Below, one piece after another: positions 442 to 27,554 of a stretch of DNA of 64,000 nucleotides. The translations under genes were made by a program, and so were the position numbers. This stretch comes from Chloroflexota bacterium (GTDB lineage Bacteria > Chloroflexota > Limnocylindria > QHBO01). Positions within the stretch are counted from its first letter, which is position 1; each line of letters opens with the position of its first letter. The stretch covers positions 256,346-320,345 of the forward strand of contig JBBDXT010000007.1 in the NCBI GenBank assembly GCA_040902225.1, given 5' to 3'. Below the pieces are notes generated by a model. The model made no database searches. It worked only from the letters and a program-made list of their open reading frames with translations, and was not told where the DNA came from.

Positions 442-1128
442 ATGAAGGCCTCCTCCGCGCCGGGAACCGTGCTGCCGCTGCTCCTGGCCGTGGTCGGGGT
501 GGGTCTCATCCTCGCCGGGCAGCTGCCCGTCGACAGGCCGGGAGCCAGCCTGCCGGGGATCCCCGAGCCGAGCGAGGTGGCGGTGGCCACTCCCACTCCC
601 ACGCCGGGTCCCTCGGGGTTCACGCCGGTGCCGACCCCCTCAGCCACCCCCATCCCCGACGATTGGGTGGCCAAGCAGATCGAGATCCCGTCGGTCGCGC
701 TGAACGTGGCGGTCAAGCACGCGACCATCGGTCAGGGGGGCTTTCCGCCCGACGACGCCGCGTACGTTCTCTACCAGAGCTCGGAGCCGGGACGCGGCAC
801 GAGCACATACATCGTCGGGCACGCGCTTCAGCACCTCTTCAAGCGCCTCTGGAACGTGGTCCTGGGAGCGGAGGTCAAGATCCTCATGTCGGACGGGGTC
901 GTGCTGCACTACGTGGTGACGGAGATCCACCCCAACGTCAGCTGTCCCGACGAGCGCGTCCCTGAGATGCCCAACCCGCCGCTCGCCCTCCAGTACCCGC
1001 CGCCGGGCAATTGCCCTGGCGCGGAGTGGGCGAGCCCCACCGACCATGAGCGCCTCACCCTGCAGACGAGCCAGGGCTTCAACCGCAACTGGGGCGAGCT
1101 GATCATCATCGCGGACCCGCTCTTCTAG
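442..1128 (+). CDS. Sortase-fold protein (class E/F-like) with N-terminal TM anchor and Pro/Thr linker; catalytic Cys replaced by Ser (TLQTSQG)
   Basis: TM segment then PTPTPGP linker; conserved sortase motifs YIVGH (His) and LTLQTSQG aligning to TLxTC, followed by Arg-containing strand (GFNRNWGELIIIA). Confidence 0.5.
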   Translation: MKASSAPGTVLPLLLAVVGVGLILAGQLPVDRPGASLPGIPEPSEVAVATPTPTPGPSGFTPVPTPSATPIPDDWVAKQIEIPSVALNVAVKHATIGQGGFPPDDAAYVLYQSSEPGRGTSTYIVGHALQHLFKRLWNVVLGAEVKILMSDGVVLHYVVTEIHPNVSCPDERVPEMPNPPLALQYPPPGNCPGAEWASPTDHERLTLQTSQGFNRNWGELIIIADPLF

Positions 1129-2669: not shown

Positions 2670-3385
2670 AGATCGCTGCGCTCGAGCCCCGCCCCGGCCA
2701 ATGCGAGCAGAACGGCTGCCGATGCCAGCGCGGCCCCGGCCGACTGGAGCGCGCCCGCCACCGGGCGAACGGCGGAGTCCAGGTGCGTCAGGAGGCCCAG
2801 GCCGCCGATCGGCAGCGGAAGCGCGCTCAACGGCGCCAGGAAGGCCGCCGCAACCAGCGGGGTGCTGACCGCCACAGCAAGGAGGGTCGCCGGCAGGTTC
2901 GGCAGCGTGGTGCCGATGAGGAGGCCCGCAGCTACGCCGGCCAGGGCGGTCCCTGCGGTTGCCGCCGCGGCCGCGGCGAAGGGGAGCGCGTCGGGCGGTG
3001 CCTCGGCCCGGCCGATGACCGCCAGCCAGGCACCGACTGCACCGAGTGCGAGGCCCGTGATGAGCAGGATGGCGAAGGCCAGGAACCACGAGAAGAGGAC
3101 CGATGCGCGCGGCACGGCGCGCACCGCCATCCAGGCCACCGTTCCGCGGCGGCGCTCATGGGCCATGGTCAGCGCCGCCAGGCCCGACGCAACGCAGATC
3201 GCCGCGCCGGCGGCGACGGCGTACCAGAAGCTGGCCCCGCCGACCGCGGTCTCGCCCGCAAACTCGGGCGGCACCGCGCTGACCAGCATCCCGCCGACCA
3301 CCGGCAGGCCGACCAGGGGGACCAGCCGGAAGCTGATCCACAGCTCGTGCAGCGCCATGCGCGTGAGCGTCCGGAGGCGCCTCAT
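2666..3385 (-). CDS. ABC-2 type transporter permease
   Basis: Six predicted TM helices with ABC-2 E(R)ExGT-like motif (AHERRRGT); translationally coupled (4-nt overlaps) to the ATPase upstream and MFS downstream. Confidence 0.55.
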   Translation of the reverse strand: MRRLRTLTRMALHELWISFRLVPLVGLPVVGGMLVSAVPPEFAGETAVGGASFWYAVAAGAAICVASGLAALTMAHERRRGTVAWMAVRAVPRASVLFSWFLAFAILLITGLALGAVGAWLAVIGRAEAPPDALPFAAAAAATAGTALAGVAAGLLIGTTLPNLPATLLAVAVSTPLVAAAFLAPLSALPLPIGGLGLLTHLDSAVRPVAGALQSAGAALASAAVLLALAGAGLERSDL

Positions 3386-9197: not shown

Positions 9198-10411
9198 GTG
9201 AGCCGATCGCTCCGCCGGCGCCCCCGGTCGCGGTCGGTGCGCCGATCCCTGGCGCCCAATCCGTCGCCAATCGGGCCCCGCTGAAGGTCGGGATCGTGAG
9301 CCCGTACGGCTATCCCCACCCCGGCGGCGTCAACGAGCACGTCCGCCACGCCTACGAGGCGATGCGGCGGATGGGCCACGACGCCTGGATCATCACCAGC
9401 AAGTACGGCAAGGAACGGGAGGACGAGGGGCGCGTCATTCGGCTGGGGACCGGCTACGCGTTCCCTGCCAACGGCAGCATGGGCCGCGTCACGCTCGGCT
9501 GGCGCTTCAAGCAGCAGGCGCGCGAGCTCCTCGCCGAGCATCGGTTCGACATCCTGCATTTCCACGAGCCGTTCGTGCCGTTCCTGTCGCCGACCATCCT
9601 CGACCAGTCCGACACCGTCAACGTCGCCACCTTCCACGCCTTTGGCGGGTTCTCGCCGTCGTACTGGGTCGGCAAGTGGTTCGCGGGCCGCCTGGCGGCC
9701 AAGCTCCACGGCCGGATCGCGGTCAGCGGGGCCGCGCGCCACTTCATCAGTCGCTACTTCCCCGGCGACTATCGGATCATCCCCAACGGGGTCGACCTGG
9801 ACCGATTCGCCGATGCGGAGCCGTTCGAGGAGCTTCGGGACGGGACGATCAACATCCTGTTCGTGGGTCGCTTCGAGGAACGCAAGGGCCTCATCCACCT
9901 GCTCCGTGCCTATCACCGCCTGCGCAAGCGCCACGTCGATGCGCGACTGCTGATCATCGGCTCGGGACCCAAGCAGCGCGAGTACCGCCGCTTCGTGGGG
10001 CTGCGCCAGGTGCGCGACGTGGAGTTCCTGGGCCGCGTGTCGGATGACGCCAAGGCGCGCTACTTCGCCAGCTCCGACATCTTCTGCGCGCCGGCGACCG
10101 GCCAGGAGAGCTTCGGGATCGTGCTGCTGGAGGCGATGGCCGCCGGCGTGCCGATCGTCGCATCGGACATCCACGGCTACAAGAACGTGGTGCAGCGCGG
10201 CGTCCAGGGGCTGCTGGTCGAGCCGCGCAACCACCGGGCCCTGGCGGCGGCGCTCTACCGCCTGTCGAACGACGAGGAGCTGCGGCACCGGATGGGTGAG
10301 GAGGGGCGCGCGAAGGCCCCCGAGTACTCCTGGGACCGCGTCACCGAGCAGATCGTCGACTTCTACCGCGAGATCCGGGAGGGGGCGATCAGGACGGGCA
10401 CTCCCCGCTAG
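9188..10411 (+). CDS. pimA: GT4 glycosyltransferase, phosphatidylinositol alpha-mannosyltransferase (PimA-like)
   Basis: N-terminus LKVGIVSPYGYPHPGGVNEHV... parallels PimA (MRIGMVCPYSFDVPGGVQSHV); C-terminal GT-B EX7E region (FCAPATGQESFGIVLLEAMAAGVPIVASD). Confidence 0.75.
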   Translation: MAMSEPIAPPAPPVAVGAPIPGAQSVANRAPLKVGIVSPYGYPHPGGVNEHVRHAYEAMRRMGHDAWIITSKYGKEREDEGRVIRLGTGYAFPANGSMGRVTLGWRFKQQARELLAEHRFDILHFHEPFVPFLSPTILDQSDTVNVATFHAFGGFSPSYWVGKWFAGRLAAKLHGRIAVSGAARHFISRYFPGDYRIIPNGVDLDRFADAEPFEELRDGTINILFVGRFEERKGLIHLLRAYHRLRKRHVDARLLIIGSGPKQREYRRFVGLRQVRDVEFLGRVSDDAKARYFASSDIFCAPATGQESFGIVLLEAMAAGVPIVASDIHGYKNVVQRGVQGLLVEPRNHRALAAALYRLSNDEELRHRMGEEGRAKAPEYSWDRVTEQIVDFYREIREGAIRTGTPR

Positions 10412-12394: not shown

Positions 12395-13195
12395 CTACCC
12401 CACTCTCTTCAGCTTGCCGGTGCGCTTTGCGTAGCGCTCGGCGCGCCCGAAGGCCCACAGGCCCAGCGGGATGAACACGATCCCCATCAGGACCAGCGGC
12501 CAGACATCGCCGAGCAGATCGGCCACGCCCACGCCGTCGATCAGCCCGGCGCGCGTCGCGTCGAGCACGTAGGTCGCCGGGCTGAAGTTCGAGAGGAACT
12601 GCATCCAGCCGGGGAGCACGTCCACGCTGTAGTAGACGCCGCTGATCAGGAGCAGCACCGACTGCAGCACGAAGGTCATCTGCGCCCCACGCTCGACGTA
12701 CATCAGCGGCAGGATGGCGGTCATGATCCCGATCCCGATGAACGAGACCGAGCCGAGCACCATGAAGACCGCGGCGGTCACGAAGTTGGCGCGTGACAGG
12801 TCGAGCTCGAAGAAGAGGGCGAGCACCACCAGCACCACCACGGTGTGCACGAAGCCGAACGCCACCGCGTAGACCGTCGAGCCCAGCATTTGCGCATAGC
12901 GCCGCACGGGGGCCATGAAGGTGTACTCCAGCGTCCCCTCCCAGCGCTCCCAGCTGACCGTTTCGGCGATGAAGCTGAAGACGACCGACAGGTAGTTCCA
13001 GAAGACGGCGCCGATCACCAGCGTCATCAGCAGCCGGGTGTCGCCCTGCCCCTGTCCGATCAGCGACACGGCCAGCGCGCCCGCCACCGCATAGACCAGG
13101 AAGGCGACCTCCCAACCCCAGTAGCGCTTGGTCAGGTTGAAATTCCGCTCGACAAAGGCGAACGAGGCTTTCAGCTCGCGGGTCATGAGTGCCAT
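12395..13195 (-). CDS. ABC-2 type exporter permease (DrrB-like)
   Basis: Six TM helices, ABC-2 family pattern; follows the ATPase with a 4-nt gap. Confidence 0.7.
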   Translation of the reverse strand: MALMTRELKASFAFVERNFNLTKRYWGWEVAFLVYAVAGALAVSLIGQGQGDTRLLMTLVIGAVFWNYLSVVFSFIAETVSWERWEGTLEYTFMAPVRRYAQMLGSTVYAVAFGFVHTVVVLVVLALFFELDLSRANFVTAAVFMVLGSVSFIGIGIMTAILPLMYVERGAQMTFVLQSVLLLISGVYYSVDVLPGWMQFLSNFSPATYVLDATRAGLIDGVGVADLLGDVWPLVLMGIVFIPLGLWAFGRAERYAKRTGKLKRVG

Positions 13196-13199
13196 CGGT

Positions 13200-14147
13200 C
13201 TAGTCCTCGTCGTCCTTCTCTTCGTCGTCTCCCAGGTCGTCGTCCAGCGAGCGGCCGGTGTAGGTCATGAAGACGCTCTCCATGGTCGGCTCCAGCCCGC
13301 GCTCATCGGCCACCTTGGCCTTCAGCGCCTCGGGCGTGTCCTCGACCACGATCCGCCCGTCGTTGATGATCGCAATCCGGTCGCAGAGCCGATCCGCCTC
13401 CGCCAGGTCGTGCGTGGTCAGCACGATCGTGGCGTCATGGGTGTCGCGCAGCTCCTCGATGAAGGTCTGCACGTCCAGTTTCGACCGCGGGTCGAGACCG
13501 GTCGTCGGCTCGTCCAGGAGCAGCAGGGTCGGGCTGGTCAGCAGCGCCCGCGCGATCGCGACCTTTTGCTGCATCCCCCGGCTCATCTGCTCCAGCGGCC
13601 GGCTGAGTCGCTTCTCGCCGATCCCCAGCCGTGCCAGGATCGAGATCGCCTCCGCTCGGGCGGCCTTCGGCTCCATGCCGTACAGCCGCGCCGCGTAGGC
13701 CAGGTTCTCGAACGGGCTCAGCTTCTTGAAGAAGGCGGCGTCCACGCTCACCCGGTTGATGACGCGCTTGACCGCCATCTCGTCCCGCTCGATGTCGTGG
13801 CCGAAGACCTCGACTTGTCCGGCGTCCAGCGTGAGCAGCGTGCTCACCAGACGGATCAGGGTCGACTTACCGCTCCCGTTCGCGCCCAGCACGCCGTAGA
13901 TCTCGCCCCGGCGGATCCGGATCGTGACGTCGTTCACGGCCATCACCCGCTTGCGCTTGCGCCCGACCACGAACTCCTTGGTGACGTGCTCGACGAGCAG
14001 GGCCAGAACGCCGTCGTCCGAGAGGACGCGGTTCGTGCGCGAAGGCGCCGGCACTGCCGGGCGCATCGCCTCGGTCTTCGGTTGTTCCAGCAGGGTGGTC
14101 ATCTCAGGTTCCTCTGGGTGATCTGTCATCACTCGCTCGATTGTCAT
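13200..14147 (-). CDS. ABC transporter ATP-binding protein (DrrA-like)
   Basis: Walker A GANGSGKST, signature MSRGMQQK, Walker B LLLDEPTTGLD, H-loop TTHD; acidic C-terminal tail. Confidence 0.85.
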   Translation of the reverse strand: MTIERVMTDHPEEPEMTTLLEQPKTEAMRPAVPAPSRTNRVLSDDGVLALLVEHVTKEFVVGRKRKRVMAVNDVTIRIRRGEIYGVLGANGSGKSTLIRLVSTLLTLDAGQVEVFGHDIERDEMAVKRVINRVSVDAAFFKKLSPFENLAYAARLYGMEPKAARAEAISILARLGIGEKRLSRPLEQMSRGMQQKVAIARALLTSPTLLLLDEPTTGLDPRSKLDVQTFIEELRDTHDATIVLTTHDLAEADRLCDRIAIINDGRIVVEDTPEALKAKVADERGLEPTMESVFMTYTGRSLDDDLGDDEEKDDED

Positions 14148-14197: not shown

Positions 14198-14619
14198 CTT
14201 GCTCCTCGCCGGTGGGCGAGCATCAAAAAACCGTGGACCCGATCTGGCCCACGGCTCGTGGCTTGTGCTTGGCGGCCCTGCCGCCATGGCATCAGCTCGA
14301 GGGGGGCGCAGATCTCCCGCCGTCGGCGCCGTTGGTAGGCGTCGTGAGGCGCTCGATTCGGGCGCTGTGCGAGAGTCTCATGGCTAGAACACACGTCCTC
14401 GTTGAGAGGTTGGCCGGGCGGCACCACACAGCGGTAAGGCAAGGTCGGGGCCGCCGCGGGAGTCTACGACCCGGTCTCTGGCGATGTCAAGCCGATTCCG
14501 GGGTAGTAGTTAGAGGCCGTCAAAGTTGCCGCGGCCGGGGGGAGCGGGGGATCGCCGGCCCTGCCGTCATGTGTTTCATGGGCCCACCTAGGCCTTCTGC
14601 GAAGGTGTGGCGGGCAGTA

Positions 14620-16110
14620 CTAGAGGATCGTGGGCTGCGTACCCGTGCCAACCAGGCATTGCGGCATTTGATTCACGATGAAACGCCAAGCGTTGCGAGC
14701 ATCGTCCGAGGTGAAATGGGGTTGGCTCTCCAAGTAGTAATTGGCTAGACCCCAATCCAGCCAGCCCATGTCCGGACGCCACATCACGTTCTGGGGACCC
14801 GCATGGCCGTAATGGCACAGGCCCAAGTAGTGCCCGATCTCGTGTGCCAGGACGTACTGGAATACATAGGACGGCCAGTGATCGCGGTGGAGGACAGCCG
14901 AGCCACGCTCTCCTCCGCTGTTAACCGTGGAGCAGCAGCTGTCGTTTCGATCCGGTGGAGTCGTGCATGAGGCTGCCCGCGTGCCCTCGAGCTGGCTTCG
15001 GCCAACGGTCAGACCGAAGTGCTCGCTGTCGTCGACGAGGTGATAGCGGAAGTTTCCCAGCGTTAGAAGTGTGCACTCCTCGCCAGACTCACCGTTGCGC
15101 AGTTCCTCGCGCACCAGCCACGGACTAATGAACCCATCCGAGAAGCGGAATTCGTCCTCGCCACTGATGTCATGCACCCCGTAATTGTGGAACCACGAGA
15201 AGCGTTCGCTGTCGTTCCATTCCAGCTTGATGCCAAGGTCATGACACCTCTCCGTGGCGATCCGGATTTTCTCGGCGACCGCCTCATCGGACATCGCGTA
15301 GATGCGTATGCGCCCTGTCCGCCCCTGACTATGGATGTAGCGCGAAAGTGTCCAGCGCGTGACCGGGAAGGAGCTCTCGTTCCCCTGCGAATCGACCTCT
15401 TTCACCACCGTGCGCGGTCGCGGTACGAAGTCGGCCGAATCGAAGCTGAGAAGCCGTGACATGGCATAGAGGTCGATTACGCCGCTCTCGTGCCACTGCC
15501 AGAGTGGGGACGTCGCGCTGTCCAGGCGCAGCACTAGGTGCCTAGCTTGAAGGGGTAGACCCCAGCCAGCCCGATCAAGACCGACACGATCGCGGGCCGC
15601 TTGTAGCGCGACGGGATCCGAGCCGAACTTCGTGTTCAGGAGGTCCGAGACGAAGCCACGCAGCGATGACCGATCGTACTTGCCAACTATGCCTCCAATG
15701 ACGTACCCGCCGAAGATGAAGCGAGCCGCATCCACGAGGAAATCGAGGAAATCCATGAAGAGGTTTCCGAATCCTTCGACGACGCCGACGAAGTCGAGCC
15801 GTAAGAGGTCCCCGAAGATGCCAATTACATCCCGAGCGGCATCGAAGAAATCTCCGATGAGATCCTGAGCGCCCTCTAAGAGCCCATCTAGGAATCCGCC
15901 GACAATGTTGCCGGCATTGCAGGCAAAGTCGCCGCCATTGGCGCACAACCAGTCGGTGCCGTCTTCAATCTGGTCCTGTGCCCAATCAATGCCCGTATCG
16001 ACGGCATCGTCCACCGTGTCGACGACCGCATCGGCCGCGTCCTCCACGGCATCGCCGACAGTCGACGCGACTGACGAGACGGCATTCCCGATGTCACTCA
16101 ACCAGCCCAT
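14620..16110 (-). CDS. Signal-less 496-aa protein: N-terminal acidic Gly/Asp/Phe-rich 11-residue-periodic repeat domain plus C-terminal metzincin-type zinc metallopeptidase domain (HEIGHYLGLCH ... NVMW)
   Basis: Extended HExxHxxGxxH motif with downstream Met-turn candidate. Strong RBS GGAGGT 6 nt before ATG 16110. No signal peptide or TM segment. Lower GC than flanks. Confidence 0.7.
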   Translation of the reverse strand: MGWLSDIGNAVSSVASTVGDAVEDAADAVVDTVDDAVDTGIDWAQDQIEDGTDWLCANGGDFACNAGNIVGGFLDGLLEGAQDLIGDFFDAARDVIGIFGDLLRLDFVGVVEGFGNLFMDFLDFLVDAARFIFGGYVIGGIVGKYDRSSLRGFVSDLLNTKFGSDPVALQAARDRVGLDRAGWGLPLQARHLVLRLDSATSPLWQWHESGVIDLYAMSRLLSFDSADFVPRPRTVVKEVDSQGNESSFPVTRWTLSRYIHSQGRTGRIRIYAMSDEAVAEKIRIATERCHDLGIKLEWNDSERFSWFHNYGVHDISGEDEFRFSDGFISPWLVREELRNGESGEECTLLTLGNFRYHLVDDSEHFGLTVGRSQLEGTRAASCTTPPDRNDSCCSTVNSGGERGSAVLHRDHWPSYVFQYVLAHEIGHYLGLCHYGHAGPQNVMWRPDMGWLDWGLANYYLESQPHFTSDDARNAWRFIVNQMPQCLVGTGTQPTIL

Positions 16111-16441
16111 GCGCCGACCTCCGCAAGTGGCCTTTCCCCATTCATCTCAGCTAGGGTCGCCTCTCGTTCATTGAAACTGCGCCCATCCGTGCGGGCCAGG
16201 CACAGCATGTCGCGCAGATTGCGGCGTGGCGAATCCCCGGCGGCACTCTCCCACTTGGGCAGGACCTTGCCGAAAGCGCGCACGTTCCACGTCGCAATCA
16301 ACAGAATTGCGGTCGAGGGTCTTGGGTGGGATCGAGGAGGCGTCCAGGGCTGCCCGCAGCGTGGCGATATCGGCAAGCGCCTTCGCGGGTGCGCCGCTCG
16401 GGAAGCTATCCATGCCAGATCTCCTCCCCTATTGAGCCGGA

Positions 16442-16885
16442 CTAGAGTCGTTCGTCTAGGCTCTGACCGGCGATGAGATAGTCATCGCGCGAGGCGAATT
16501 GCACGAGCAAAATGATCTCGCTATCGCCTGCTTGCCCGCCAGCAAGTCTCCTTTCCAGCAGGAACGTCGGAACCGGTGATCCCTTGATTTCCACGCGTAC
16601 GCCCCACGAGATGTCCAAATCGCTGACCTGCCCGACCTGCCACGTCAGCTCGGACCAATCGACACTCTTGATATCGTCCACGAACGCCGCCATATCGTTG
16701 TCGTAAACAACGTCTTGAGTCTTGGCTGTCAGGTGCTCCCAAGCAGTCGTGGTGTCGCCGGTAGCCAGCGCGCGCATGAAGTCGTCCGCGGCGCCGCTGG
16801 CTAGGTCGGGGCTCCCAATCTGTGCGCACGCGGTTAGTCCAAAGGCGAAAACAAGGATTGTCCCTGCGATTGCGTGACGGCCCAC
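16442..16885 (-). CDS. Lipoprotein, function unknown
   Basis: GTG start with AGGGGG RBS; signal peptide with lipobox LTAC (GRHAIAGTILVFAFGLTAC); low-GC island. Confidence 0.55.
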   Translation of the reverse strand: MGRHAIAGTILVFAFGLTACAQIGSPDLASGAADDFMRALATGDTTTAWEHLTAKTQDVVYDNDMAAFVDDIKSVDWSELTWQVGQVSDLDISWGVRVEIKGSPVPTFLLERRLAGGQAGDSEIILLVQFASRDDYLIAGQSLDERL

Positions 16886-16895
16886 GGTTAACCCC

Positions 16896-18080
16896 CTATT
16901 GCCAGCCAGCCCGGGACCAGTAGACGTCATTCTGCAGGACGTCGCTCACGCCTGGATTCTGCCGCTTGAAATCTGCGATTGACAAGTCGACGAGATACAC
17001 GTAGCCGCTCGCCTCCAAGCGTTCAAGCGTCGCGAGGTCGGGCACGGTCACATTGGCTGACACGATACCCATGACGCCGACATTGGCCTCGCTCGCCTCC
17101 TCATCGACCCATTCGGGATTCGCCCCTGGCCGCGTCATGACATATGTCACTCTGAGGCCATTGGCATCCGGCTCGGTCACGAATTCCAGATCCGCCACCG
17201 AAACGCCGAGCGCTTCGAAGTCTAAGAACTCGCTCCAAGTGAGCGGGTATGCGAATGTGACCACGCCGTCGGCAGGCCCGAGGTTACTTGTGGTGCGTGC
17301 GAGTTCACGCGTGCCGCGAGCATATGAAATGAGGCCACTGCCTAACTGCGCCGCGAGGTGCACATCCCCATCAGCGGCAAGAGTCGCTGTGTAAGGCCTT
17401 CCATTCGCGACTCTTAGGCTCGCGACATCCTGTGTCGCGGGCGCCGATTCGGGGGGAGCGATCGCGGCGAATTGGGAGTTGGAGGGATAGTAGGTGTCGG
17501 TGTCGTTCGGCAGAGGGGTGTTGCAGCAGTGGGTATCCCACTTGTCGCAGAAGAACGGGCAACCCGCCGTCGAGAGATTTTCGAAGTACTCGAGGTGCCC
17601 ACCATCGGGGTCGTACCTGCAGCAGACCTGGTTCCCGTTGACGTAGTAGGTGTACGAGTGTGACCAACGGACGGAGCTGTAGTACCACGTGTTCGCAGCG
17701 GGGAACGAATTGCTTTCTGAGACGATCTCGGCCTCGTCGTCTTTCGAGTCGCCGTTGTCGTCATCGAGATCCGTGTACGGGTTCAGGATAGTGGTGCCGA
17801 AAAGATAGGCTTCGACGTTGTGATTAAAGTCAGTTTGGTCGATGGTGAACTTGATGCCGTTGGCTTGGTTTGTCCGCTGGTGGGGCGCGTTGGTGGAGTT
17901 CCAAATCATGTAGATCCGCGCCCTGAACGAATCGTCCGTGGTTTTTCGGGTGAACGGGTAGCTATACACGTCGTATTCTTCGTAACTCCACCAGTCGTCG
18001 GTTTCGTGGTTCGCCGACACAGGGCTGCTGAGCGCGGCGCCGACGAAGATTGCCGCAGCAAACACTCGCAGTAGTCGCAC
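16896..18080 (-). CDS. Secreted Tyr/Asn/Trp- and Cys-rich protein, function unknown
   Basis: GTG start with AAGGAG RBS; Sec signal peptide RLLRVFAAAIFVGAALSSPVSA; CC/CxxC clusters; atypical composition and low GC. Confidence 0.55.
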   Translation of the reverse strand: MRLLRVFAAAIFVGAALSSPVSANHETDDWWSYEEYDVYSYPFTRKTTDDSFRARIYMIWNSTNAPHQRTNQANGIKFTIDQTDFNHNVEAYLFGTTILNPYTDLDDDNGDSKDDEAEIVSESNSFPAANTWYYSSVRWSHSYTYYVNGNQVCCRYDPDGGHLEYFENLSTAGCPFFCDKWDTHCCNTPLPNDTDTYYPSNSQFAAIAPPESAPATQDVASLRVANGRPYTATLAADGDVHLAAQLGSGLISYARGTRELARTTSNLGPADGVVTFAYPLTWSEFLDFEALGVSVADLEFVTEPDANGLRVTYVMTRPGANPEWVDEEASEANVGVMGIVSANVTVPDLATLERLEASGYVYLVDLSIADFKRQNPGVSDVLQNDVYWSRAGWQ

Positions 18081-18099
18081 GGGTTGCTCCTTTACCGGC

Positions 18100-18300
18100 G
18101 AGGGCGTTCGAGTAGTAGTCGTAGGTGCTGGACTTGGCGAACAGCAAGATGTACTCATGGCCGGTTACCGGGCGGTCCAAGACAGGCTCTGGCATGTGGG
18201 CGCGAGTTTCACGGAGCAGCTGCCCATCTTCATCATCCGGGAGCGGGCGCTGTTTCGACCAGATGATCATGGAGCGGAGCCACAGTCCCCGCTTTTGCAC
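18100..18300 (-). pseudogene. Remnant of an N4/N6 DNA methyltransferase gene (PF01555-like fragment)
   Basis: About 65 codons matching the post-DPPY region of amino-MTases (MIIWSKQ ... HEYILLFAKSSTYDY); no upstream catalytic motifs, and no methylase-like sequence downstream. Confidence 0.5.
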
Positions 18301-18394
18301 AGCCTGCGCAACGAGGAATGGAATTAGTGTCAGATCCTTGTCCTTGAGTCTGCGATCGTGCGCCGAGCAATCCCGGCCTTCTCGTCATCCTTAA

Positions 18395-18943
18395 GGTTCC
18401 ACACGTTCTGGGGCCCTCGCGCTCGCCACCGGGGGAGCCGTCGCGCTGGCGGCACAGCGGGGCTACTTCGACCAGAACCTCCTCGCCGGGGCGTGGCGGC
18501 TCTGGCCGCTGATCCTGGTCGCCATCGGCTTCTCGATCCTTGTCTCGAGGGGAATGCCGCAAGCTTCACCCTCAATCCCAAAGATGGCTGCGGGGGCCGC
18601 CGCCTGGGAAGTGCCATACGTGGCGGGCGGCGTCGCGGAGTACCTGGACGTCGTGATGTGGATCGTTGTGCCGTTCGGGCCAGGGCCGGCCGACACCGCC
18701 GTGGGTCAGCCGGCCGCAGCCGGCGCAGATCCGGTCACGAGCTGGAATGCACAGCCGCACCGCACAGAGCGCCGCTCAGGGAGCGGGTCGAGGATCTTCG
18801 GGCTGATCCTGATCGGGCTCGGCCTGTACTTCCTCGCGCGGGAGTACCTGCCCGGGGTCGACTTCGATCGGCTCTGGCCGCTGCGGCTCGTCATGCTCGG
18901 CGTGATCCTCCTGTACGGAGCGATCCGGAGCCGCCCAGCCTGA
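18395..18943 (+). pseudogene. Small membrane protein with two WPL-type TM hairpin repeats (DUF5668/LiaF-TM-like), apparently 5'-truncated at the island boundary
   Basis: Open frame from TAA at 18392 with no canonical start before ATG 18554. Repeats GAWRLWPLILVAIGFSIL and DRLWPLRLVMLGVILL. Its 3' 168 nt overlap the tail of the giant GT-C gene on the other strand. Confidence 0.3.
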
Positions 18944-21900
18944 AGTATCCGACCCCGAGCCGACGCTGCTCGCGGCTGCTCGCCGAGCGGCAATGAAGTC
19001 TCGCCCGAAGAGTGCAAAGGCTGCCGCACCCAGCGAGACGACCAGGCCGATCGCCAGCTTGACGCTGTCGGCGCTGAGCAGCTGACCGCGAGGGCCCTGC
19101 GGCGGATCGGGGAACTGGAACGCGTAGTTCCACGGGGCCAGGGCGCGGGCCGCGTTGATGTACCAGTCCGGCATGGCGAGCGCGGACCCGAGCGGGAAGA
19201 TGAGGAGCCCGGCGACCACGGCGAGGACCAGGAAGGCGATCGCCAGGGACCGATAGGCCCACGTCCGGAGGCCCTCGTCCACCACGTACGCCACCGCGAT
19301 CATGGCGATCAGGACGGCGGTGAAATAGTGGTAGTGGAAGGTCGCCCGCTCGATCCGGGTCCAGGGCAGGTACTGGAGCACGAACGCGGCGACGAGGAGG
19401 GTGAGGGCGAGCGATCGGCGACGCCAGGCCTGCACCGCGCACCACAGGATGGCCGGGATGCCGGCCCAGAACAGGATCGGGTTGCCGCCGTTGTAGATGA
19501 CCGCCATCTCGCGGTTGTCGTACGAGTGGCTGTAGAACCAGACCGGCTTCAGGTCGAGCGGCCAGCTCCACCACGGCGAGGCGGCCGGATGCCCGGCCTG
19601 CAGGCCGAAGTGGTAGCCGAACATCTGCGACTGCATCTCGTCCAGCGACCAGCCGTAGCCGGGGCCCAGCTTTTCGATCGAGATGCCGTGCCCCAGCTGG
19701 AGATACGGGATGTAGGCGACGAAGTAGATGAGCAGCGGAACCACCAGCAGGCAGGCCCCGACCCATGGCCAGGCGAAGCCAGCCATCTCGCCGGGGATGT
19801 ACCAGCGCCGGTCGCTGCTCGGCTCCCGGAGGGAGCGCCACGCTCGAGCGAGGAGCAGCAGACCCGCCACCGCCAACATGATCCAGGCGGGCCAGGCGGC
19901 CTGCGCCCCGCGCGCCAGGAAGGCAAAGAGGAACTCGACCGCGCTGCGTGGCTCCCGACCCTCCACGGTCGAATAGGCGATCGCGAAGGCCAGGCCGATC
20001 CCCCCTCCCACCACCCCGATCGGTGGGAGCGCCAGGATGTCCATCGGCGAGAGCTGAATCGGCCGCCGCCAGACCAGCAGCAGCGCCACGGCAAGCGCCA
20101 GGAAGCACACCACCAGGAACGGCCACGGGGCGCCAAAGCCCGCCACGACCGTGATGAAGGCGATCCCCGCCACCAGGAAGAATCTGCCGAATTGCGATCG
20201 GGCCAGCACCAGCACCCACAGCCCGATCAGCGCGTACCAACCCACCCACTTGCTCGCCGCGGCCAGGCCGATCAGGACGCCGACCAGCGGCAGCGCCCAC
20301 CAGGCGCTGCGCGCCCATCGGCCTGACCAGACCTGCCAGAAGAGCGCATAGCCGGCCAAGATGAAGGTCGCCACGAAGATGTCGTTCATCGAGATCCGGC
20401 TCATGACGTAGCTCATCCCGTCGAAGGCCACGAACAGGGCCGCCAGCACCGCGATGCGCCGGCGCGGGAAGAGGGTCGCGGCGAACAGGTAGATGATCCC
20501 GACCAGCGCGGCTCCGAATACGATCCCCGCCAGGCGCCAGGCGAAGGCATTGCTGCCCGCGTCGATCGACACCAGCCGGCTTGGTCCGCCAGCTCCCTCG
20601 TCGGTCGAGACCAGCAGCAAGCCATGGTCGTCCCCCTGGGCCTCGTCGGAGATGTCGAAGGCCATGGCCAGGGCCTCGCCCGGGAGGACGGTCGTGTCGA
20701 AGGCGGCAAAGCCGGCGCTCTGCGTGCCGCCGTTGCCAAGCGGCGAGACGGCCCATACGACCGGCTCATCCGTCCGCTCCCGCACCCCCGCGACGTAGAC
20801 GATGTTGGCCACCTGCTGCCAGCCGATCGCCACCGCCGGACCTGGCAGCGGGACCGTGTCGATCAGCTGCGCGCTCTCATCGAAGACGCTGAGCCCGCCA
20901 AGGACAGGCCCGTGCTCGTCGTCAGCCGGCAGCGGGCCGAGGGGGACCCAGACCTGGAGGTTCTTGCCGCTCCCCTGCACCAGCAGCGGGCCTACCGGGG
21001 TCGAGGGAAGCGCGATCTTGCCATCCGAGCCGACGTCGGTCTCGGGTCTCAGCGTGCCGCCGTCGAGCACGATCAGTCCCGAGCCCGCCCGGTCGACCGC
21101 TACCACCCGCGGGTCGGCGACCTCGCCCGATCCCCCCGGTACGTAGCCGACTCCGGTCGCCACGAGGTCGGAGCTGGCCAGCTCGACGCCCGTCTCCCGC
21201 TCGATCTCGACGATCCCGTTGGGTCCGAGGAAGAGGATCACCGTCTCTCCGTTGGGGACCACGATCTGCGTCACCGCCGCCAGGCCGGTCTCGATCTGGG
21301 CGACGCCGGGCGGTGGACCGCGCTCGCCGAGCTGGCCCAGGAAGGCGGTCATGTCGTAGGCGGACACCGCGCCGCCCGAAGCCAGCCCCACCAGGAGCCG
21401 GTCGCCATCCTCGTCATACGCCATGCTGGCCACCGGGCCCTGGGCGCTCCAGGAAGAGACCTGCTCGCCGGTCAGCACCTCCCGCGCCGTGATCACCTCG
21501 TCTCCGGCCGTGGTGAAGACGATCGACTTCGGTCGGGTCTGCGCCGTCCGCTGCGGAGCGATGGCGATGGCCGTGGCGGGGGCCTCGAGATCGGTCCCGC
21601 CGACGACCTTGTTGGGGTCCGCCACCAAGATCCCGGCGGCGATCAGGTATTTCGCCAGCGGCGGATGAGTCCACTCATACGTGTCACGGGTCCAGCCCTC
21701 CTGCCAGTCGGCCAGCCACTCGGTCGCGGTGCGCGCGTGGTAGACCTCGTCGAAATGGGTGTGCCGCGGCAGCTCCAGGCGCCACAGCCGGAACAGGAAG
21801 GCGGCAAGGATCAGCGTCGCCAGCAGGAGCAGGTCGAGCCGGTCCAGGCGTCGCCGAGGCTCTTCGACGTAGGTCGGATCGCGGCGCAGCCCGGCGGGGA

Positions 21901-23482
21901 GGCGCCATCGCCGAGGCGCCGCGGCGCCCTCGGGCGTGACCGCGGGTGCAGCCACGGGCGCCGAAACGAGCGGCCCCCTTTCGGTCCGCGCGCGTTGCAC
22001 CCCTCCCTCTTGCCGGACGCCCAGCGCCATCTCCGCCGCCCGGACCAGCAGCCAGGCCAGCGCGATCACGATCATCAGCGAGAGGAGGTAGATGCCGGTG
22101 TCGTTGAAGACGACCGTCGCCAGAACCGGGTCGCGCGGCATCGGCTCACGGAAGAGGCCCGGGTTCATGGGATGGTCGCCGCCGGCGAACGAGAAGTCGG
22201 TGGTGTAGAGCCAATAGACGTTCGAGAAGAACGAGAGGGTCAGCACGAAGTAGAGCGCCGCCCATTTCCAGGATCGGGCCACCAGCGGGGCGGCCAGCGC
22301 CAGCGCCGGGAAGAGATAGCGCTCGTGCACGCGGGTCGGCAGCGCGAAGAAGGCGACGGCCAGCACCAGGGCGCACACCAGGATGCCGGCGGGGTCGTCG
22401 CGGCGCGCGACGGTCCACAGCGCAACCAGGGCGGCGATGCCGAAGAGGCCTGCCCCCACGAGCTGCCAGCTGATCGGTGTCGAGCCAATCACGAAGGCGA
22501 TGCCCGATCCATCGGCGCAGGTGGGCGGAAGGGTGTCGCAGCCCCAGCGGTACGCATCGCCCAGGCCAGTCCACGGGTTGCGCCACAGGTTGAAGGCGTT
22601 GATGGTCAGGCCCTTGTAGGTGTTGCTCGCCGCGATGAAGCGGTCGACCAGGCTCAGGTTCGGATCGGCGGGTGCCCAGATGGCAAGGCGGAAGGGCAGG
22701 ATGACCAGGACCAAAGTGCCGAGGCCGGTCGCCAGCGAGGTGAGGATCCTGATCGGATCCGCTCGGCCGGCCTGATCCGGGTCGGATGAGCGGCCGAAGA
22801 GATGGCGCTTGATGCCGACCACCGCGACCAGTGGAATCAGGAAGCCGAACTGGAACTTGACCAGCATGGCGAGCACGGCGCCAGCCGCCGCGGCCTCGGT
22901 CCAGCCGCGAGCGAGCATGTAAAGCGTCGCCAGCACCACGAGCGTGCCGACCGAGTCGACCTGGCCCCAGACCGCGGAGTCGAAGATGGTTCCAGGGTTG
23001 AAGAGATAGATGACAACCGCCACCAGGCCAAGCCGCTCGCCGCTCCACGACCCCAGCCATCCGTCTCCGTAGCGGCGCGCGTAAAGGAAGAGGAGCCAGG
23101 CGACGCCAGCGTCGCCGAGGATCCCCGGCACCTTGACCAGGCCCGGCGTGATCGAGAGCCCGAAGACCGGCCGCAGCAGCTCGCCGATGCCCCCGAGCAG
23201 CCACAGCACGTACATGTAGCCGGGTGGGTAGTCCGCCAGGTAGCCGGGCTGGTAGAACTGGCCGGGCCCTTGGGCGGACATGCGGGCGGCCCAGATGGCG
23301 AAGTCGCCGACGTCCACGCGAAAGCCGGAGAACGGCAGGTACGGCCCGGCGATGACGGCGCGCAGCAGCACGCCGAGGACGATCAGGATGACGACCAGGG
23401 TCGCGGGATCGAGCGGCAGGCCGCGTTCGATTGGCCTCGCGCCCCGCTCCCTGACGGAGTCGCGGGTCATCGGTGACGGCAC
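18776..23482 (-). CDS. 1568-aa polytopic membrane protein: N-terminal GT-C-like domain fused to a Pmt-family (GT39) protein O-mannosyltransferase carrying a ~430-aa insertion in periplasmic loop 1
   Basis: Pmt hallmarks HFDEVYHARTA and HPPLAKYLIAAG, then after the insertion AWRLAGIVFGAAL... VAFDGMSYVMSRISMNDIF (compare Mtb Pmt LICDGVSFVTARTALLDGF) and C-terminal 4TMC region (FYSHSYDNREMAVIYNGGNPILFW). More than 20 predicted TM helices; acidic disordered tail. Confidence 0.7.
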   Translation of the reverse strand: MPSPMTRDSVRERGARPIERGLPLDPATLVVILIVLGVLLRAVIAGPYLPFSGFRVDVGDFAIWAARMSAQGPGQFYQPGYLADYPPGYMYVLWLLGGIGELLRPVFGLSITPGLVKVPGILGDAGVAWLLFLYARRYGDGWLGSWSGERLGLVAVVIYLFNPGTIFDSAVWGQVDSVGTLVVLATLYMLARGWTEAAAAGAVLAMLVKFQFGFLIPLVAVVGIKRHLFGRSSDPDQAGRADPIRILTSLATGLGTLVLVILPFRLAIWAPADPNLSLVDRFIAASNTYKGLTINAFNLWRNPWTGLGDAYRWGCDTLPPTCADGSGIAFVIGSTPISWQLVGAGLFGIAALVALWTVARRDDPAGILVCALVLAVAFFALPTRVHERYLFPALALAAPLVARSWKWAALYFVLTLSFFSNVYWLYTTDFSFAGGDHPMNPGLFREPMPRDPVLATVVFNDTGIYLLSLMIVIALAWLLVRAAEMALGVRQEGGVQRARTERGPLVSAPVAAPAVTPEGAAAPRRWRLPAGLRRDPTYVEEPRRRLDRLDLLLLATLILAAFLFRLWRLELPRHTHFDEVYHARTATEWLADWQEGWTRDTYEWTHPPLAKYLIAAGILVADPNKVVGGTDLEAPATAIAIAPQRTAQTRPKSIVFTTAGDEVITAREVLTGEQVSSWSAQGPVASMAYDEDGDRLLVGLASGGAVSAYDMTAFLGQLGERGPPPGVAQIETGLAAVTQIVVPNGETVILFLGPNGIVEIERETGVELASSDLVATGVGYVPGGSGEVADPRVVAVDRAGSGLIVLDGGTLRPETDVGSDGKIALPSTPVGPLLVQGSGKNLQVWVPLGPLPADDEHGPVLGGLSVFDESAQLIDTVPLPGPAVAIGWQQVANIVYVAGVRERTDEPVVWAVSPLGNGGTQSAGFAAFDTTVLPGEALAMAFDISDEAQGDDHGLLLVSTDEGAGGPSRLVSIDAGSNAFAWRLAGIVFGAALVGIIYLFAATLFPRRRIAVLAALFVAFDGMSYVMSRISMNDIFVATFILAGYALFWQVWSGRWARSAWWALPLVGVLIGLAAASKWVGWYALIGLWVLVLARSQFGRFFLVAGIAFITVVAGFGAPWPFLVVCFLALAVALLLVWRRPIQLSPMDILALPPIGVVGGGIGLAFAIAYSTVEGREPRSAVEFLFAFLARGAQAAWPAWIMLAVAGLLLLARAWRSLREPSSDRRWYIPGEMAGFAWPWVGACLLVVPLLIYFVAYIPYLQLGHGISIEKLGPGYGWSLDEMQSQMFGYHFGLQAGHPAASPWWSWPLDLKPVWFYSHSYDNREMAVIYNGGNPILFWAGIPAILWCAVQAWRRRSLALTLLVAAFVLQYLPWTRIERATFHYHYFTAVLIAMIAVAYVVDEGLRTWAYRSLAIAFLVLAVVAGLLIFPLGSALAMPDWYINAARALAPWNYAFQFPDPPQGPRGQLLSADSVKLAIGLVVSLGAAAFALFGRDFIAARRAAASSVGSGSDTSGWAAPDRSVQEDHAEHDEPQRPEPIEVDPGQVLPREEVQAEPDQDQPEDPRPAP

Positions 23483-24939: not shown

Positions 24940-27162
24940 CTACTCGAGGACGACTCGGACGATCCGTGTCGGCGTCAGCAGGTACGCGACCGGTGGGCCG
25001 TCGGCGACCGAGGCAACGCTGAAGGCCCGCACCTCGTCCAGCAGCGCGGCCTCCGCGCCGCTGCGTGGCGCGAGCCATTGGCGCAGGAACGAGCCGTCGG
25101 CACGCTGGTAGGAGAGAATCCGCGCATGCGCCGCGTCGTAGACGTAGAAGGTCTCGCGGTCGCCGATCGTCGCACCGTCAAGAAGGCGGTAGTCGAGGTT
25201 GGGGCGGAGAGACCCGTCCGGCGGCGCGTCGAGGGAATAGTCCTCCTGCGCAAGCGGCGTCCCGAAGTTGACGCGCGTCACGGTGCGGGCCTGCAGCAGC
25301 CACAGGTTGGCATCCGCGAACATGTCGCGGGCCTGGGCGACGGGCAGATCCGGGCGCTCGACGAGGTACGACTCGGGTGGGCTCGGGTAGCGGACCGGGA
25401 TCACGTCGCCAGGGGTCCACTTGAGCACGTCGCCCCCACCCCCATCGACCAGGTACAGGTTGAAGATCTCCAGTGGTGGCCGATGCTGGAGTGCGGTCAG
25501 CAGCCGGCTCTCCGTTGAGACGGCACCCAGGCCGGGCAGCCCGATCGGATGCGCGACCTGCTCGACGAGGTCGAAGCGCCACGCCTGCCGGGCGCGATCC
25601 AGCAGCACCACGTCGGTCGCCGCGGTGGCGATCATCCACGGGGCCCCGGCCGTCACGCCGTCGAGGTCCTGTCCTGCCCGATACAGGACGGCCGCCTCCC
25701 CGCTCGCCGGATCCACCCGGATCACACGCCCGTGACCGACCTCGGCGACCCACAACGAGCCGTCGCTGGCCATCACCATGTCGACCGGATCGGTGGCGGT
25801 GAAGGCGGCCGCAAGGTCGGCCACGGTGGTGCTGTCGAGGAGGCGCCCCACCGCGAAGATCGTGTCCAGGCCGCGCTCGATGCGGCCCCGCAGCGGGTCG
25901 AGCGAGGCCGGGGCGACGCCTGCCTCAGAGGCTCGTTCGATGGCGGCGAGCGAGTCGGTCAGGAGCGTGGCTGCACGCGTCGGGTCGCGGTCGATCAGGT
26001 CCCGCCCGTCGACCCTTTCGTCGACCGTGCCGACCAGCTCATGCGCCTCGGCGATGGCGGCCCGCGCGATCGAGGCTCGCAGGATGGCGTCGGTCGGACG
26101 CGGGTTCGGGAGGCTGGCAACACTCGCGCCGACCGCCAGCAGGGCCGCCACGGCGGCGATCCCGAGCAGCCCGCGACGGCGGCGACGCCCCTCTTCGCGC
26201 AGCGCGGTGCGGGGGATGCTGGTCGGATAGCGCGCGCGGCGGCGGGGCACGAAGGCGAGCGCCATGTTGACCCCCACCAGGAGGCCGCGTGCCAGCGCGC
26301 GCTGGCCGGCGTCGATGGCATCGCCGCCCCGGTGCAGAAGGTGCCCGATCGCATCGGCCAGCGGGACCGGGCTGCGGTCCGGGAGTCCGGCCAGCTCCTC
26401 GTGCGGATGAACCGGCTCGAGCTGGTGGGTGGCGGCCGTCGCCGCCAGCTCGATCAGCTCGATCGCCAGCAGCCCGTCGGAGCCCTGGCCGCCCCGGATC
26501 TGGAAGAGCTGGTGCAGGTGCTCGACCGCTGCTGCCGGGCGGAGCGTGGCCAGGGCGCGCTGCACCTCGTCGACCCCGACCACCTGGGCCACGTTGCGCG
26601 ACACGAGCGCCACCCGGTCGCCCGCCGCGAGCTCGCCCTCCCAGGTGTACGGCTTGATCTCGAGCGTCTCCCCGAGCGAGTCGGCAACCCGGCGCTCGCG
26701 GACCCGCGGATCCTCCGCATCCACGGACGGGGGAGGCGGCAGCTCGAACATCCGCTCGTCCCGCACGATGACCGCGGCGGCTGGCCCGAGCTTGGCCACG
26801 TGCCCCTCCCGCCCACGAACCACCAGGGCCACGATGCTCACCCCTCCACGTCGGGTGAGCCCGAGCCGAGTTCGCTGGTGGTAGAGGAGCCGGTTGGCGG
26901 CGGAGAGCGCCTTGCTGATCGCTCCCGTCGCGCCCGCGGAAAGGTCGTAGTAGTAGTCGCGCTCGATCGTCTCCAGAGCCTCGGCCGCGGCGCGGCCCAG
27001 CGCCGGATCGGCGCCGGTGACCTGCGCGAGGAGGAAGAGGCTGCCCTTGGTGCGCACCTCTGACCCGGTCGTGGGCTCGCGAAATCGAACCAGGTCGAGC
27101 GCGTCGGAGGCGCGTTCCTCGCCGGCCAACAGGCCGATGCGGGTGGCCAGGCGGTTGCTCAT
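24940..27162 (-). CDS. Single-pass membrane protein: cytoplasmic domain with weak PP2C-like features lacking catalytic acidic residues, TM helix, and extracytoplasmic beta-propeller (NHL/SMP-30-like) domain
   Basis: ATG at 27162 (MSNRLATR); PP2C-like strand patterns (GVSIVALVVRG, GDRVALVSRNVAQVV) without metal-binding Asp; TM LLGIAAVAALLAVGASVA; propeller-like repeats (VASDGSLWVAEVGHGRVIRVDPASG). Confidence 0.4.
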   Translation of the reverse strand: MSNRLATRIGLLAGEERASDALDLVRFREPTTGSEVRTKGSLFLLAQVTGADPALGRAAAEALETIERDYYYDLSAGATGAISKALSAANRLLYHQRTRLGLTRRGGVSIVALVVRGREGHVAKLGPAAAVIVRDERMFELPPPPSVDAEDPRVRERRVADSLGETLEIKPYTWEGELAAGDRVALVSRNVAQVVGVDEVQRALATLRPAAAVEHLHQLFQIRGGQGSDGLLAIELIELAATAATHQLEPVHPHEELAGLPDRSPVPLADAIGHLLHRGGDAIDAGQRALARGLLVGVNMALAFVPRRRARYPTSIPRTALREEGRRRRRGLLGIAAVAALLAVGASVASLPNPRPTDAILRASIARAAIAEAHELVGTVDERVDGRDLIDRDPTRAATLLTDSLAAIERASEAGVAPASLDPLRGRIERGLDTIFAVGRLLDSTTVADLAAAFTATDPVDMVMASDGSLWVAEVGHGRVIRVDPASGEAAVLYRAGQDLDGVTAGAPWMIATAATDVVLLDRARQAWRFDLVEQVAHPIGLPGLGAVSTESRLLTALQHRPPLEIFNLYLVDGGGGDVLKWTPGDVIPVRYPSPPESYLVERPDLPVAQARDMFADANLWLLQARTVTRVNFGTPLAQEDYSLDAPPDGSLRPNLDYRLLDGATIGDRETFYVYDAAHARILSYQRADGSFLRQWLAPRSGAEAALLDEVRAFSVASVADGPPVAYLLTPTRIVRVVLE

Positions 27163-27203
27163 CGGGGAATCCGGACTCGAGCGAGGGACGGCGACGGGCC
27201 CGA

Positions 27204-27554
27204 TTATAGGGAGCGGCCACCCCCCGAACGAGCCACCGAAACGGTGACCCGGGTGAGGACGATCGTCGCCCCCGGACGCCCGTCCATGCGCTGGTTGGTG
27301 GCCGCCATGAGGGCCTCGGCGCGCAGCCCGAGCTCTTGCGCGAGGATCGGCTCGGACGCCTCCACCTGGGCGGTCCCGGCGCGGACGGTGATCAGGCGCG
27401 ACGAGAGGCTGTCGCGCTCGAGCCCGGCGGCGGTGACCGCCTCCTGCCACGCCAGCCGCGCCTGGGCCAGCGCGATCTGCTCGGCGGCACCGGGACCCAT
27501 GCAGGCGAGCAGGGCTCGCTGCACCGCACTGGCGGCCTCCTCGGTGCGGCTCAT
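27204..27554 (-). CDS. DUF721 domain protein (DciA-like helicase-loader candidate) downstream of recF
   Basis: Size and position (recF-DUF721, 4-nt overlap) typical of actinobacterial DciA; sequence compatible with DUF721. Confidence 0.55.
   Translation of the reverse strand: MSRTEEAASAVQRALLACMGPGAAEQIALAQARLAWQEAVTAAGLERDSLSSRLITVRAGTAQVEASEPILAQELGLRAEALMAATNQRMDGRPGATIVLTRVTVSVARSGGGRSL

Follow-up and report, generated by a model that had tools for sequence, protein, structure and literature searches.

Where and how does a zinc protease act when its gene encodes no signal peptide, and what is the function of the long acidic helical region with which it begins? This question is raised by a gene at positions 14620-16110 (minus strand) of the stretch of DNA analyzed here, 64,000 nucleotides (nt) of contig JBBDXT010000007.1 from a Chloroflexota bacterium, which we call the window. 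The gene is a complete coding sequence of 496 amino acids (aa) plus the stop codon, and encodes a leaderless metzincin with an N-terminal helical module, hereafter the N-module. The family and its architecture are undescribed: this is a new family inside the well-known metzincin clan, joined to a new portable helical module. For its mode of action we tentatively prefer, at a probability of roughly 40%, a stand-alone, horizontally mobile, leaderless pro-metzincin, the N-module of which would confer latency and engage membranes.

The catalytic metzincin domain covers approximately residues 180-490 (14641-15573, minus strand), with a beta-sheet, an active-site helix and a C-terminal helix. Its extended zinc-binding motif, H423-E-I-G-H427-Y-L-G-L-C-H433-Y-G-H436 (14803-14844, minus strand), lies in the region translated from 14782-14844 (minus strand), HEIGHYLGLCHYGHAGPQNVM. 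All His, Glu and Gly residues of the motif are invariant; across 33 aligned homologs this was seen for H423, E424, H427, G430, H433, H436 and M443. A previous reading made from the letters alone (the sequence-only reading) had pointed to the motif HExxHxxGxxH in HEIGHYLGLCH, residues 423-433, and to a plausible Met-turn. The alignment confirms the motif, and M443 (14782-14784, minus strand), 10 residues past the third zinc His (H433), is the candidate Met-turn methionine. When the zincin fold was checked by structure prediction with AlphaFold2 (AF2), as that reading had proposed, a metzincin fold was predicted, closest to ulilysin, adamalysin and fragilysin. The model contains the beta-sheet, the backing and active-site helices and the C-terminal helix of clan MA(M), and is compact at full length (predicted template modelling score, pTM, 0.87). 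Thus, in the predicted structure, the catalytic domain has an intact HExxHxxGxxH...M site on a metzincin fold.

The domain was then compared with known metzincins. Curated family models gave no family-level sequence match for the protease, in agreement with the previous remark that the combination was not recognized from a described peptidase family. The Pfam matches to M10 and reprolysin models were all below the gathering threshold and spanned only about 20-45 residues in the motif region. The best scores were 17.2 bits for Peptidase_M10 (cutoff 24) and 16.7 bits for Reprolysin_4 (cutoff 22), and the best E-value to matrixin/adamalysin models across 33 members was 1.7e-4. Pfam Peptidase_M43 did not match the window protein at E<=1, nor the family at E<=0.01 in the family summary. 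In ulilysin the Met follows the third His by about 52 residues, compared with 10 in this family. Ulilysin and the other lower pappalysins (MEROPS M43B; PDB 2cki, 2j83) are among the closest fold relatives, at only 12-17% identity, and neither ulilysin nor mirolysin was among the matches in a PDB profile search. In contrast to ulilysin, the family has neither a signal peptide nor a short Cys-switch prosegment, and carries the 160-residue acidic helical N-module instead. The Tyr 'switch' found at Met+2 in lower pappalysins (PMC11674741) is also absent: the residue is R445 here, and T, R or S in the family.

Adamalysins/ADAMs (M12B), fragilysin and Bacteroides fragilis metalloprotease II (M10C) differ from the family in possessing signal peptides. 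The residue after the third His, which is Asp in adamalysins and Ser in matrixins, is variable in the family. The archaemetzincins (PDB 2x7m, 3zvs, 3lmc) are single-domain proteins of about 180 aa without an N-module, and their defining motif HExxHxxGxxHCx4CxM...CxxC is absent here: H433 is followed by YGHAGPQNVM, in which there is no Cx4C, a Cys stands before the third His, and the remaining invariant Cys residues lie 40-50 residues upstream.

A database search yielded approximately 60 full-length homologs of 490-525 aa with 40-53% identity, all labelled 'hypothetical' and almost none with a Pfam label; in total, about 83 full-length sequences were found in the same identity range. One database entry, a partial protein from a Chloroflexota metagenome-assembled genome (MAG), is 100% identical to the window protein. 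Among species-representative genomes, the family occurs in Bradyrhizobium, Gammaproteobacteria, Gemmatimonadota, Flagellimonas beolgyonensis KCTC 23501, Saprospiraceae, Bizionia, Actinomycetota and a Thermoplasmatota archaeon, and the database search added Streptomyces, Chloroflexota and Halobium. The distribution is patchy and covers at least eight bacterial phyla or classes, diderm as well as monoderm, and two archaeal phyla. With this range, one and the same dedicated secretion system cannot serve every member.

Since the lack of a leader depends on the correct start codon, the start site was analyzed. The ATG at 16110 is the first start codon after the upstream in-frame stop in the open reading frame (ORF) listing, and a Shine-Dalgarno-like GGAGG (16118-16122, minus strand) was read from the sequence 7 nt before it. 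Residues 1-20, MGWLSDIGNAVSS... (16051-16110, minus strand), carry a signature, MG[FW]x[SE]DxGNAVSS, that is kept family-wide (consensus MGxxSDxGNAVSS in the 33-sequence alignment) and is common to the sister family described below; their predicted local distance difference test score (pLDDT) was low, 41-55, in the AF2 runs of both the full-length protein and the N-module alone. At the Bradyrhizobium, Gemmatimonadota and Flagellimonas loci, in-frame stops are located 16-36 codons upstream of the Met-Gly start, so that no hidden leader is possible there. The gene at the Thermoplasmatota locus likewise opens with the MGF... signature. The deposited protein of Streptomyces sp. NPDC001858 (P0040, 464 aa; locus L006, about 9900-10000) begins approximately 30 residues late, and its ORF extends upstream to a GTG from which the family signature, (M)GWLSSIGNG..., is read. 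Because the start is conserved, stops lie upstream of it and the Streptomyces start can be corrected, the lack of a signal peptide is, as judged from these sequences, shared by the whole family and does not stem from annotation errors.

Neither a signal peptide nor a convincing transmembrane (TM) helix was found in the 496-aa protein, as the sequence-only reading had claimed for the first ~170 residues. The most hydrophobic window, residues 124-142, is borderline, with a 19-residue Kyte-Doolittle mean of 1.63, and holds D127 and the invariant R130. That reading had also considered homologs with a different start that would drop the repeat domain; the homologs instead keep the start, with stops upstream at three loci. 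N-myristoylation at the MGxxxS-like start was rejected by inspection: Trp or Phe follows the Gly, and the family has Asp at a position where the PROSITE-type consensus requires a small residue.

Some members vary at their ends. A hydrophobic C-terminal tail like P-x-[IVL]-[ILVE] (PVIL, PIIL, PIVIE, etc.) was found in 26 of the 83 members; residues 492-496 of the window protein carry such a tail (PTIL), and other members have longer extensions that contain Cys. The tail could be used for docking or recognition. A distant subfamily with about 25% identity (P0063, P0064 and locus L015 in a Bizionia MAG) has approximately 130 additional N-terminal residues, consisting of a basic helix, a Cys cluster (CNKWFCW...) and a very hydrophobic, Lys-punctuated segment of about 45 residues, followed by acidic helices. 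This suggests, from the sequence, that proteins of this branch are stably embedded in a membrane. In the haloarchaeal member P0062, the hydrophobic start is shorter.

The N-module comprises residues 1-165 (15616-16110, minus strand) and is built of acidic, Gly-rich helices with 11/3 periodicity: H1 (2-58), H2 (60-103), H3 (107-132) and H4 (135-162). The hydrophobicity of residues 1-145 gave one sharp Fourier peak, at a period of 3.68 with a power of 225, as compared with 34 +/- 11 for shuffled sequences, whereas the power at period 11 itself was negligible (about 7). A peak at 3.67-3.75 was present in 33 of 33 homologs. When the sequence is laid out in 11 columns, hydrophobic residues fall at positions 4, 7/8 and 11 over 13 rows, and the register continues across the helix breaks. 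The pattern is thus a phase-coherent 11/3 (hendecad) amphipathic helix. The 11-residue periodicity reported earlier is real as helix geometry, but it is not an 11-residue sequence repeat. Residues 1-145 contain 27 D/E, 4 K/R and 23 Gly.

It had also been proposed that these are 11-mer helices of the apolipoprotein, perilipin or LEA type. Like those, the N-module shows 11/3 hydrophobic periodicity over more than 100 residues, and this part of the proposal stands. In contrast to them, the N-module has no period-11 sequence repeat and almost no Lys or Arg, so it is not of the amphipathic class A; its four K/R residues provide no basic interface. Furthermore, by inspection, the 4-4-3 hydrophobic stripe of helix 1 is narrow, the remaining surface being Asp, Glu, Thr and Ala, and the module is predicted to form a compact hairpin bundle packed on the enzyme. 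The Pfam Perilipin model matched weakly in 3 of 33 members (best E 1.3e-4), and not in the window protein. Helices 2 and 3 show, again by inspection, a phi-phi-(D/E)-G pattern (phi, hydrophobic residue) that resembles glycine zippers.

AF2 predicted the same four helices in the full-length protein and in the N-module alone, for which the pTM was 0.53 and the alignment shallower. The decrease in pTM fits a packing of the module against the protease in the model, and with so low a value the module-alone run was not taken as proof of autonomous folding. Pairwise identity in the N-module (35-44%) is comparable to that in the catalytic domain (40-53%); therefore, the N-module is not a disordered linker.

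These properties bring up an explanation in which the N-module serves zincin domains solely as a large prosegment or intramolecular chaperone, has no role at the membrane, and owes its periodicity simply to being a straight helical bundle without supercoiling. Synthesis as a zymogen with an N-terminal prosegment is the rule among metzincins, with few exceptions; the prosegments are helical in pappalysins, and in the structurally closest metzincins such helical prosegments block the cleft (PMC11674741). The compact full-length model, together with the less defined module alone, agrees with this, as does the fact that the best PDB sequence matches of the N-module are soluble designed helical-repeat bundles (E 2e-4); moreover, the module accompanies two different zincins (see below). 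However, the prosegments of pappalysins are far shorter than the 160 residues of the N-module, and the explanation accounts neither for the strict conservation of the extreme N-terminus and the Gly-zipper-like pattern in helices 2-3 nor for the exit of a leaderless enzyme with disulfide-type Cys pairs. We regard a prosegment and nothing else as distinctly unlikely, although this explanation overlaps the preferred reading, which includes latency.

The N-module also occurs apart from the metzincin. When its profile was searched against 1.84 billion representative proteins, the family itself was recovered together with proteins of about 335 aa (P0129, P0136, P0194), which start with MGWL[SE]D.GNA and Gly-rich helices and continue with a zincin domain, PF13699 eCIS_core (formerly DUF4157). 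The zinc motifs of this sister family are HECTH, HECVH or HESTH. It comprises at least 171 cluster representatives of about 320-350 aa, from Rhizobiales, Gammaproteobacteria, Bacteroidia, Myxococcota and Chloroflexi, and all of its members are uncharacterised. The hidden Markov model of the N-module scored a median of 37.4 bits on 122 sister proteins and 5.7 bits on the reversed sequences; since the similarity is directional, it represents homology. The two families have in common the MGWLSDIGNA... start, the acidic first helix, the Gly-rich helices, the stand-alone genes and the broad range of phyla. In contrast, the C-terminal part of the sister family is a minimal HExxH zincin and not a metzincin, its periodicity is 3.63 as against 3.68, and it is less acidic (median 13 D/E versus 8 K/R). 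From these profile results, the N-module, with its extreme N-terminus included, is a portable unit on two unrelated zinc-peptidase families. A search with a profile of the N-terminal signature for a third architecture gave only frameshifted or truncated fragments.

Two annotations touch on the sister family. At loci L020 and L021, its gene (26 contigs) is split into ORFs of 98 aa and 86 aa (10001-10297 and adjacent), and is a frameshift or pseudogene; the JGI label of the fragment, 'phage-related protein', possibly stems from a tape-measure-like similarity. A precomputed Pfam label, PF27499, is attached to P0037 of the protease family and to P0129, P0253, P0280, P0298 and P0312 of the sister family. 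This model may already describe the shared N-module; the label was absent from local Pfam scans of P0037 and P0129.

A further explanation is that the protease is an orphan cargo of a phage-tail-like injector encoded elsewhere, such as an extracellular contractile injection system (eCIS), a type VI secretion system or a tailocin, with the N-module packed into the tube lumen and the metzincin as the effector. The N-module matches tape-measure families of the PHROGs (phrog_58, E 2.4e-7), and its profile matches hundreds of multi-repeat proteins of 900-3300 aa in 5-11 stretches each; PF10145 PhageMin_Tail was present in 3 of 8 such proteins checked. DUF4157, the domain of the homologous sister family, is highly specific to eCIS loci (PMC8213781). 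eCIS cargo is laid out as an N-terminal loading sequence, an optional DUF4157 and the effector (bioRxiv 10.64898/2026.05.27.728243). The Streptomyces contractile injection system (CIS) effector Tme combines DUF4157, a region related to tape-measure proteins (TMPs) with TM helices, and a toxin (PMC11126660), and is thus a case of tape-measure-like helices associated with a zincin. Furthermore, eCIS cargo lacks Sec signals and eCIS occur in bacteria and archaea, as is the case for the protease family.

However, the tape-measure similarity was reduced to a class-level likeness by reversal and shuffle controls. Reversed TMPs retained 37.0 of 57.8 bits (64%), the real values being inflated because top scorers had been chosen, and pairwise identity between the N-module and TMPs is only about 20%, with many alternative registers. 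The matched stretches are 11-mer repeats, on which Pfam also calls Apolipoprotein, ApoLp-III, Phasin, Perilipin and Baculo_PEP_C. Judging from sequence, the N-module belongs to the same structural class as the TMP helical repeats, as an acidic version of it: both have long helices, 11-residue periodicity and small or hydrophobic residues, whereas the TMP repeats are basic or neutral (NAIK-type) and those of the N-module acidic (DAVD-type). TMPs are also 800-3000 aa long (criterion about 600-3000), compared with 496 aa, and there are no tail genes near the protease. The PhageMin_Tail domain did not match the window protein or the 33-member family scan, and DUF4157/eCIS_core is absent from the window protein and its neighbours, occurring only in the sister family. 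The N-terminus is also unlike the published eCIS loading signal. The Kyte-Doolittle sum of residues 1-35 is about +12 by hand calculation, against -36.9 for Pdp1; the charge of residues 6-21 is -2 where the signal is positive; and the region is predicted to be helical, not disordered. Only an aromatic residue within the first eight (W3) agrees with the signal.

The gene context leads in the same direction. CIS or phage-tail genes were found neither within 8-10 kb at 17 loci (14 of the protease family, 3 of the sister family) nor in the 64-kb window, whereas for 88% of known eCIS toxins the operon is no more than ten genes away (PMC11297309). Both families are absent from IMG/VR viral contigs, INPHARED and PLSDB. 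In addition, Cys pairs of the disulfide type (described below) are not expected in a cargo that would be kept unfolded inside a tube and delivered by injection to a reducing cytoplasm. We therefore consider the orphan-cargo explanation, the main rival, unlikely.

The protease gene stands alone. An all-versus-all BLAST of 14 non-redundant loci for a conserved partner (immunity protein, type VII secretion system gene, chaperone or ABC exporter) showed that only the protease is conserved, and the neighbourhoods of the family on long contigs contained neither a secretion system nor a phage tail, a CIS or an immunity-like partner. Small ORFs adjacent to the gene in three loci were rejected as partners, being mutually unrelated. 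Transposases or integrases are present near several family loci, and three sister-family loci are equally stand-alone. PADLOC gave no match to anti-phage defence, and a viral fold library gave no significant match.

In the window, the gene lies in a compositionally foreign islet (14400-18400) with a GC content of 0.55-0.63, as compared with approximately 0.68-0.72 outside, which holds the protease and two unrelated genes. The GC content at third codon positions (GC3) of these three genes is 0.69-0.73, as against 0.80-0.95 for almost all other window genes. The islet is a small foreign-composition insert in an ordinary chromosome near dnaA, dnaN, gyrA, secA and the tmRNA gene. Its boundaries showed only short chance repeats, with no bounding repeats, tRNA or integrase, and no riboswitch or leader RNA was matched by Rfam in the region upstream of the protease.

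The islet gene at 16442-16930 (minus strand) encodes a lipoprotein-like protein of 162 aa with a lipobox-like LTACAQ and a weak match to the Rv0361 family (E 0.005). It overlaps by 35 nt the gene at 16896-18158 (minus strand), whose 420-aa product matches no family; it contains several Cys, and an N-terminal segment of it is hydrophobic. These two genes were not found near any protease homolog examined. A 112-aa ORF at 17962-18300 (minus strand), in another frame across the 5′ end of the 420-aa gene, weakly matches a DNA methyltransferase (phrog_67, E 0.0017) and may be a mobile-element remnant at the islet edge. Directly downstream of the protease, on the same strand, is a pair of ABC-2 permease and ATPase genes (12395-14147, minus strand) with native GC3 (0.91-0.94). 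The pair was considered as a partner or exporter and is probably unrelated, because of its native GC3 and because no such pair is beside the homologs. Elsewhere in the window, an ORF of 1568 aa (18776-23482, minus strand; native GC3) carries PMT-type protein-O-mannosyltransferase domains that are confined to the C-terminal third, and an ORF of 939 aa (24940-27759, minus strand; native GC3) has no Pfam match at E<=1e-5. Rfam detected a full-length tmRNA at 36531-36895 (minus strand; 133.9 bits), and ARAGORN found neither tmRNA nor tRNA in the 64-kb window.

The site of action was considered from the Cys residues. C56 and C64 (CANGGDFAC; 15919-15945, minus strand) flank the hairpin turn between H1 and H2 and are likely a disulfide staple. 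Both are present in 52 of the 83 members and both missing in 31; no member has a single one, and parsimony requires 5 changes per column. For C346 and C485, both residues occur in 70 members, neither in 10 and one in 3, with 7 changes per column. The clade-specific pairs C376/C434 and C484/C-terminal Cys are perfectly coupled, each being traceable to a single event. Such co-gained and co-lost pairs behave like disulfide partners. Additions of extracellular type are present at the C-terminus of two members (He_PIG in P0016 and CarboxypepD_reg in P0078), and the close fold relatives of the catalytic domain are all secreted enzymes. From the coupled Cys pairs, these domain additions and the secreted relatives, we infer that the protease acts outside the cytoplasm.

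The sequence-only reading had left a choice between a membrane-targeting intracellular protease and a leaderless secreted effector. The leaderless, extracytoplasmic side of this choice is now favored. In the intracellular explanation, the amphipathic N-module would tether the protease either to the cytoplasmic side of the membrane or to a body made of lipid or polymer. This is hard to reconcile with Cys pairs that were gained and lost repeatedly and almost always together, with the extracellular-type additions and with the secreted relatives. Moreover, an N-module so strongly anionic, with few basic residues, should be a poor binder of the anionic cytoplasmic membrane face, and a rare, patchy, horizontally transferred gene of foreign composition resembles a conflict or toxin gene rather than a housekeeping regulator. 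We judge this explanation to be doubtful, to about the same degree as that of the orphan cargo.

The leaderless pro-metzincin that we prefer would work as follows. In the producer, the helices would pack on each other and on the protease and hide their hydrophobic stripes, so that the enzyme stays soluble and latent. Latency would resemble that given by the N-terminal prosegments of other metzincins, and the zinc could be blocked by the invariant E23 or the loop residue D106. The protein might leave the cell without Sec, by lysis, in vesicles or by the N-module's own membrane activity. Low pH, cations or a surface might then neutralise the acidic face and allow the Gly-zipper-like helices 2-3 (residues 66-143) to engage a membrane, where the protease would thereby be placed or released. 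The order of parts would be the same as in the C-terminal part of T5 pb2, namely helical rod, hydrophobic segment and zinc peptidase. T5 pb2 has a coiled-coil, then 46 hydrophobic residues that are believed to make up a channel through the membrane, and then a muralytic metallopeptidase (PMC10038345); its peptidase, in contrast to the one described here, is muralytic and not a metzincin.

Three caveats apply to this reading. On the Wimley-White octanol scale with D/E protonated, residues 67-143 are continuously membrane-favourable, with a minimum of -9.1 as compared with -0.8 kcal/mol in the charged state; however, a catalytic-domain control behaved similarly, and these energetics are only compatible with acid-triggered insertion, not specific evidence for it. 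The four invariant Cys residues (382, 392, 393 and 432) could form a Zn(Cys)4 site like that of the archaemetzincins, which are intracellular. Finally, the sister family has a median of one Cys.

A bolder version, which we consider very unlikely, is that the N-module acts on its own as a membrane-translocation device, independently of any secretion system: an acidic Gly-zipper hendecad hairpin that is soluble when charged and inserts when neutralised. Alternatively, the hairpin may be pulled outward by the membrane potential. In either case the zincins would be carried out of the producer or into a target cell. If true, this would explain why two unrelated zincin families, in diderms, monoderms and archaea, share the module and are always stand-alone and leaderless.

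Few proteases have been studied as thoroughly as the metzincins; even so, no curated model matches this family, and its architecture departs from their usual order of a signal peptide, a short prosegment and a catalytic domain. The role of the N-module bears on how apparently disulfide-bonded, leaderless proteins leave prokaryotic cells, on the function of DUF4157, and on whether tape-measure-like helices are a general membrane-crossing device. In practice, the module could be used as a latency or delivery tag, and the enzyme could offer a new protease specificity.

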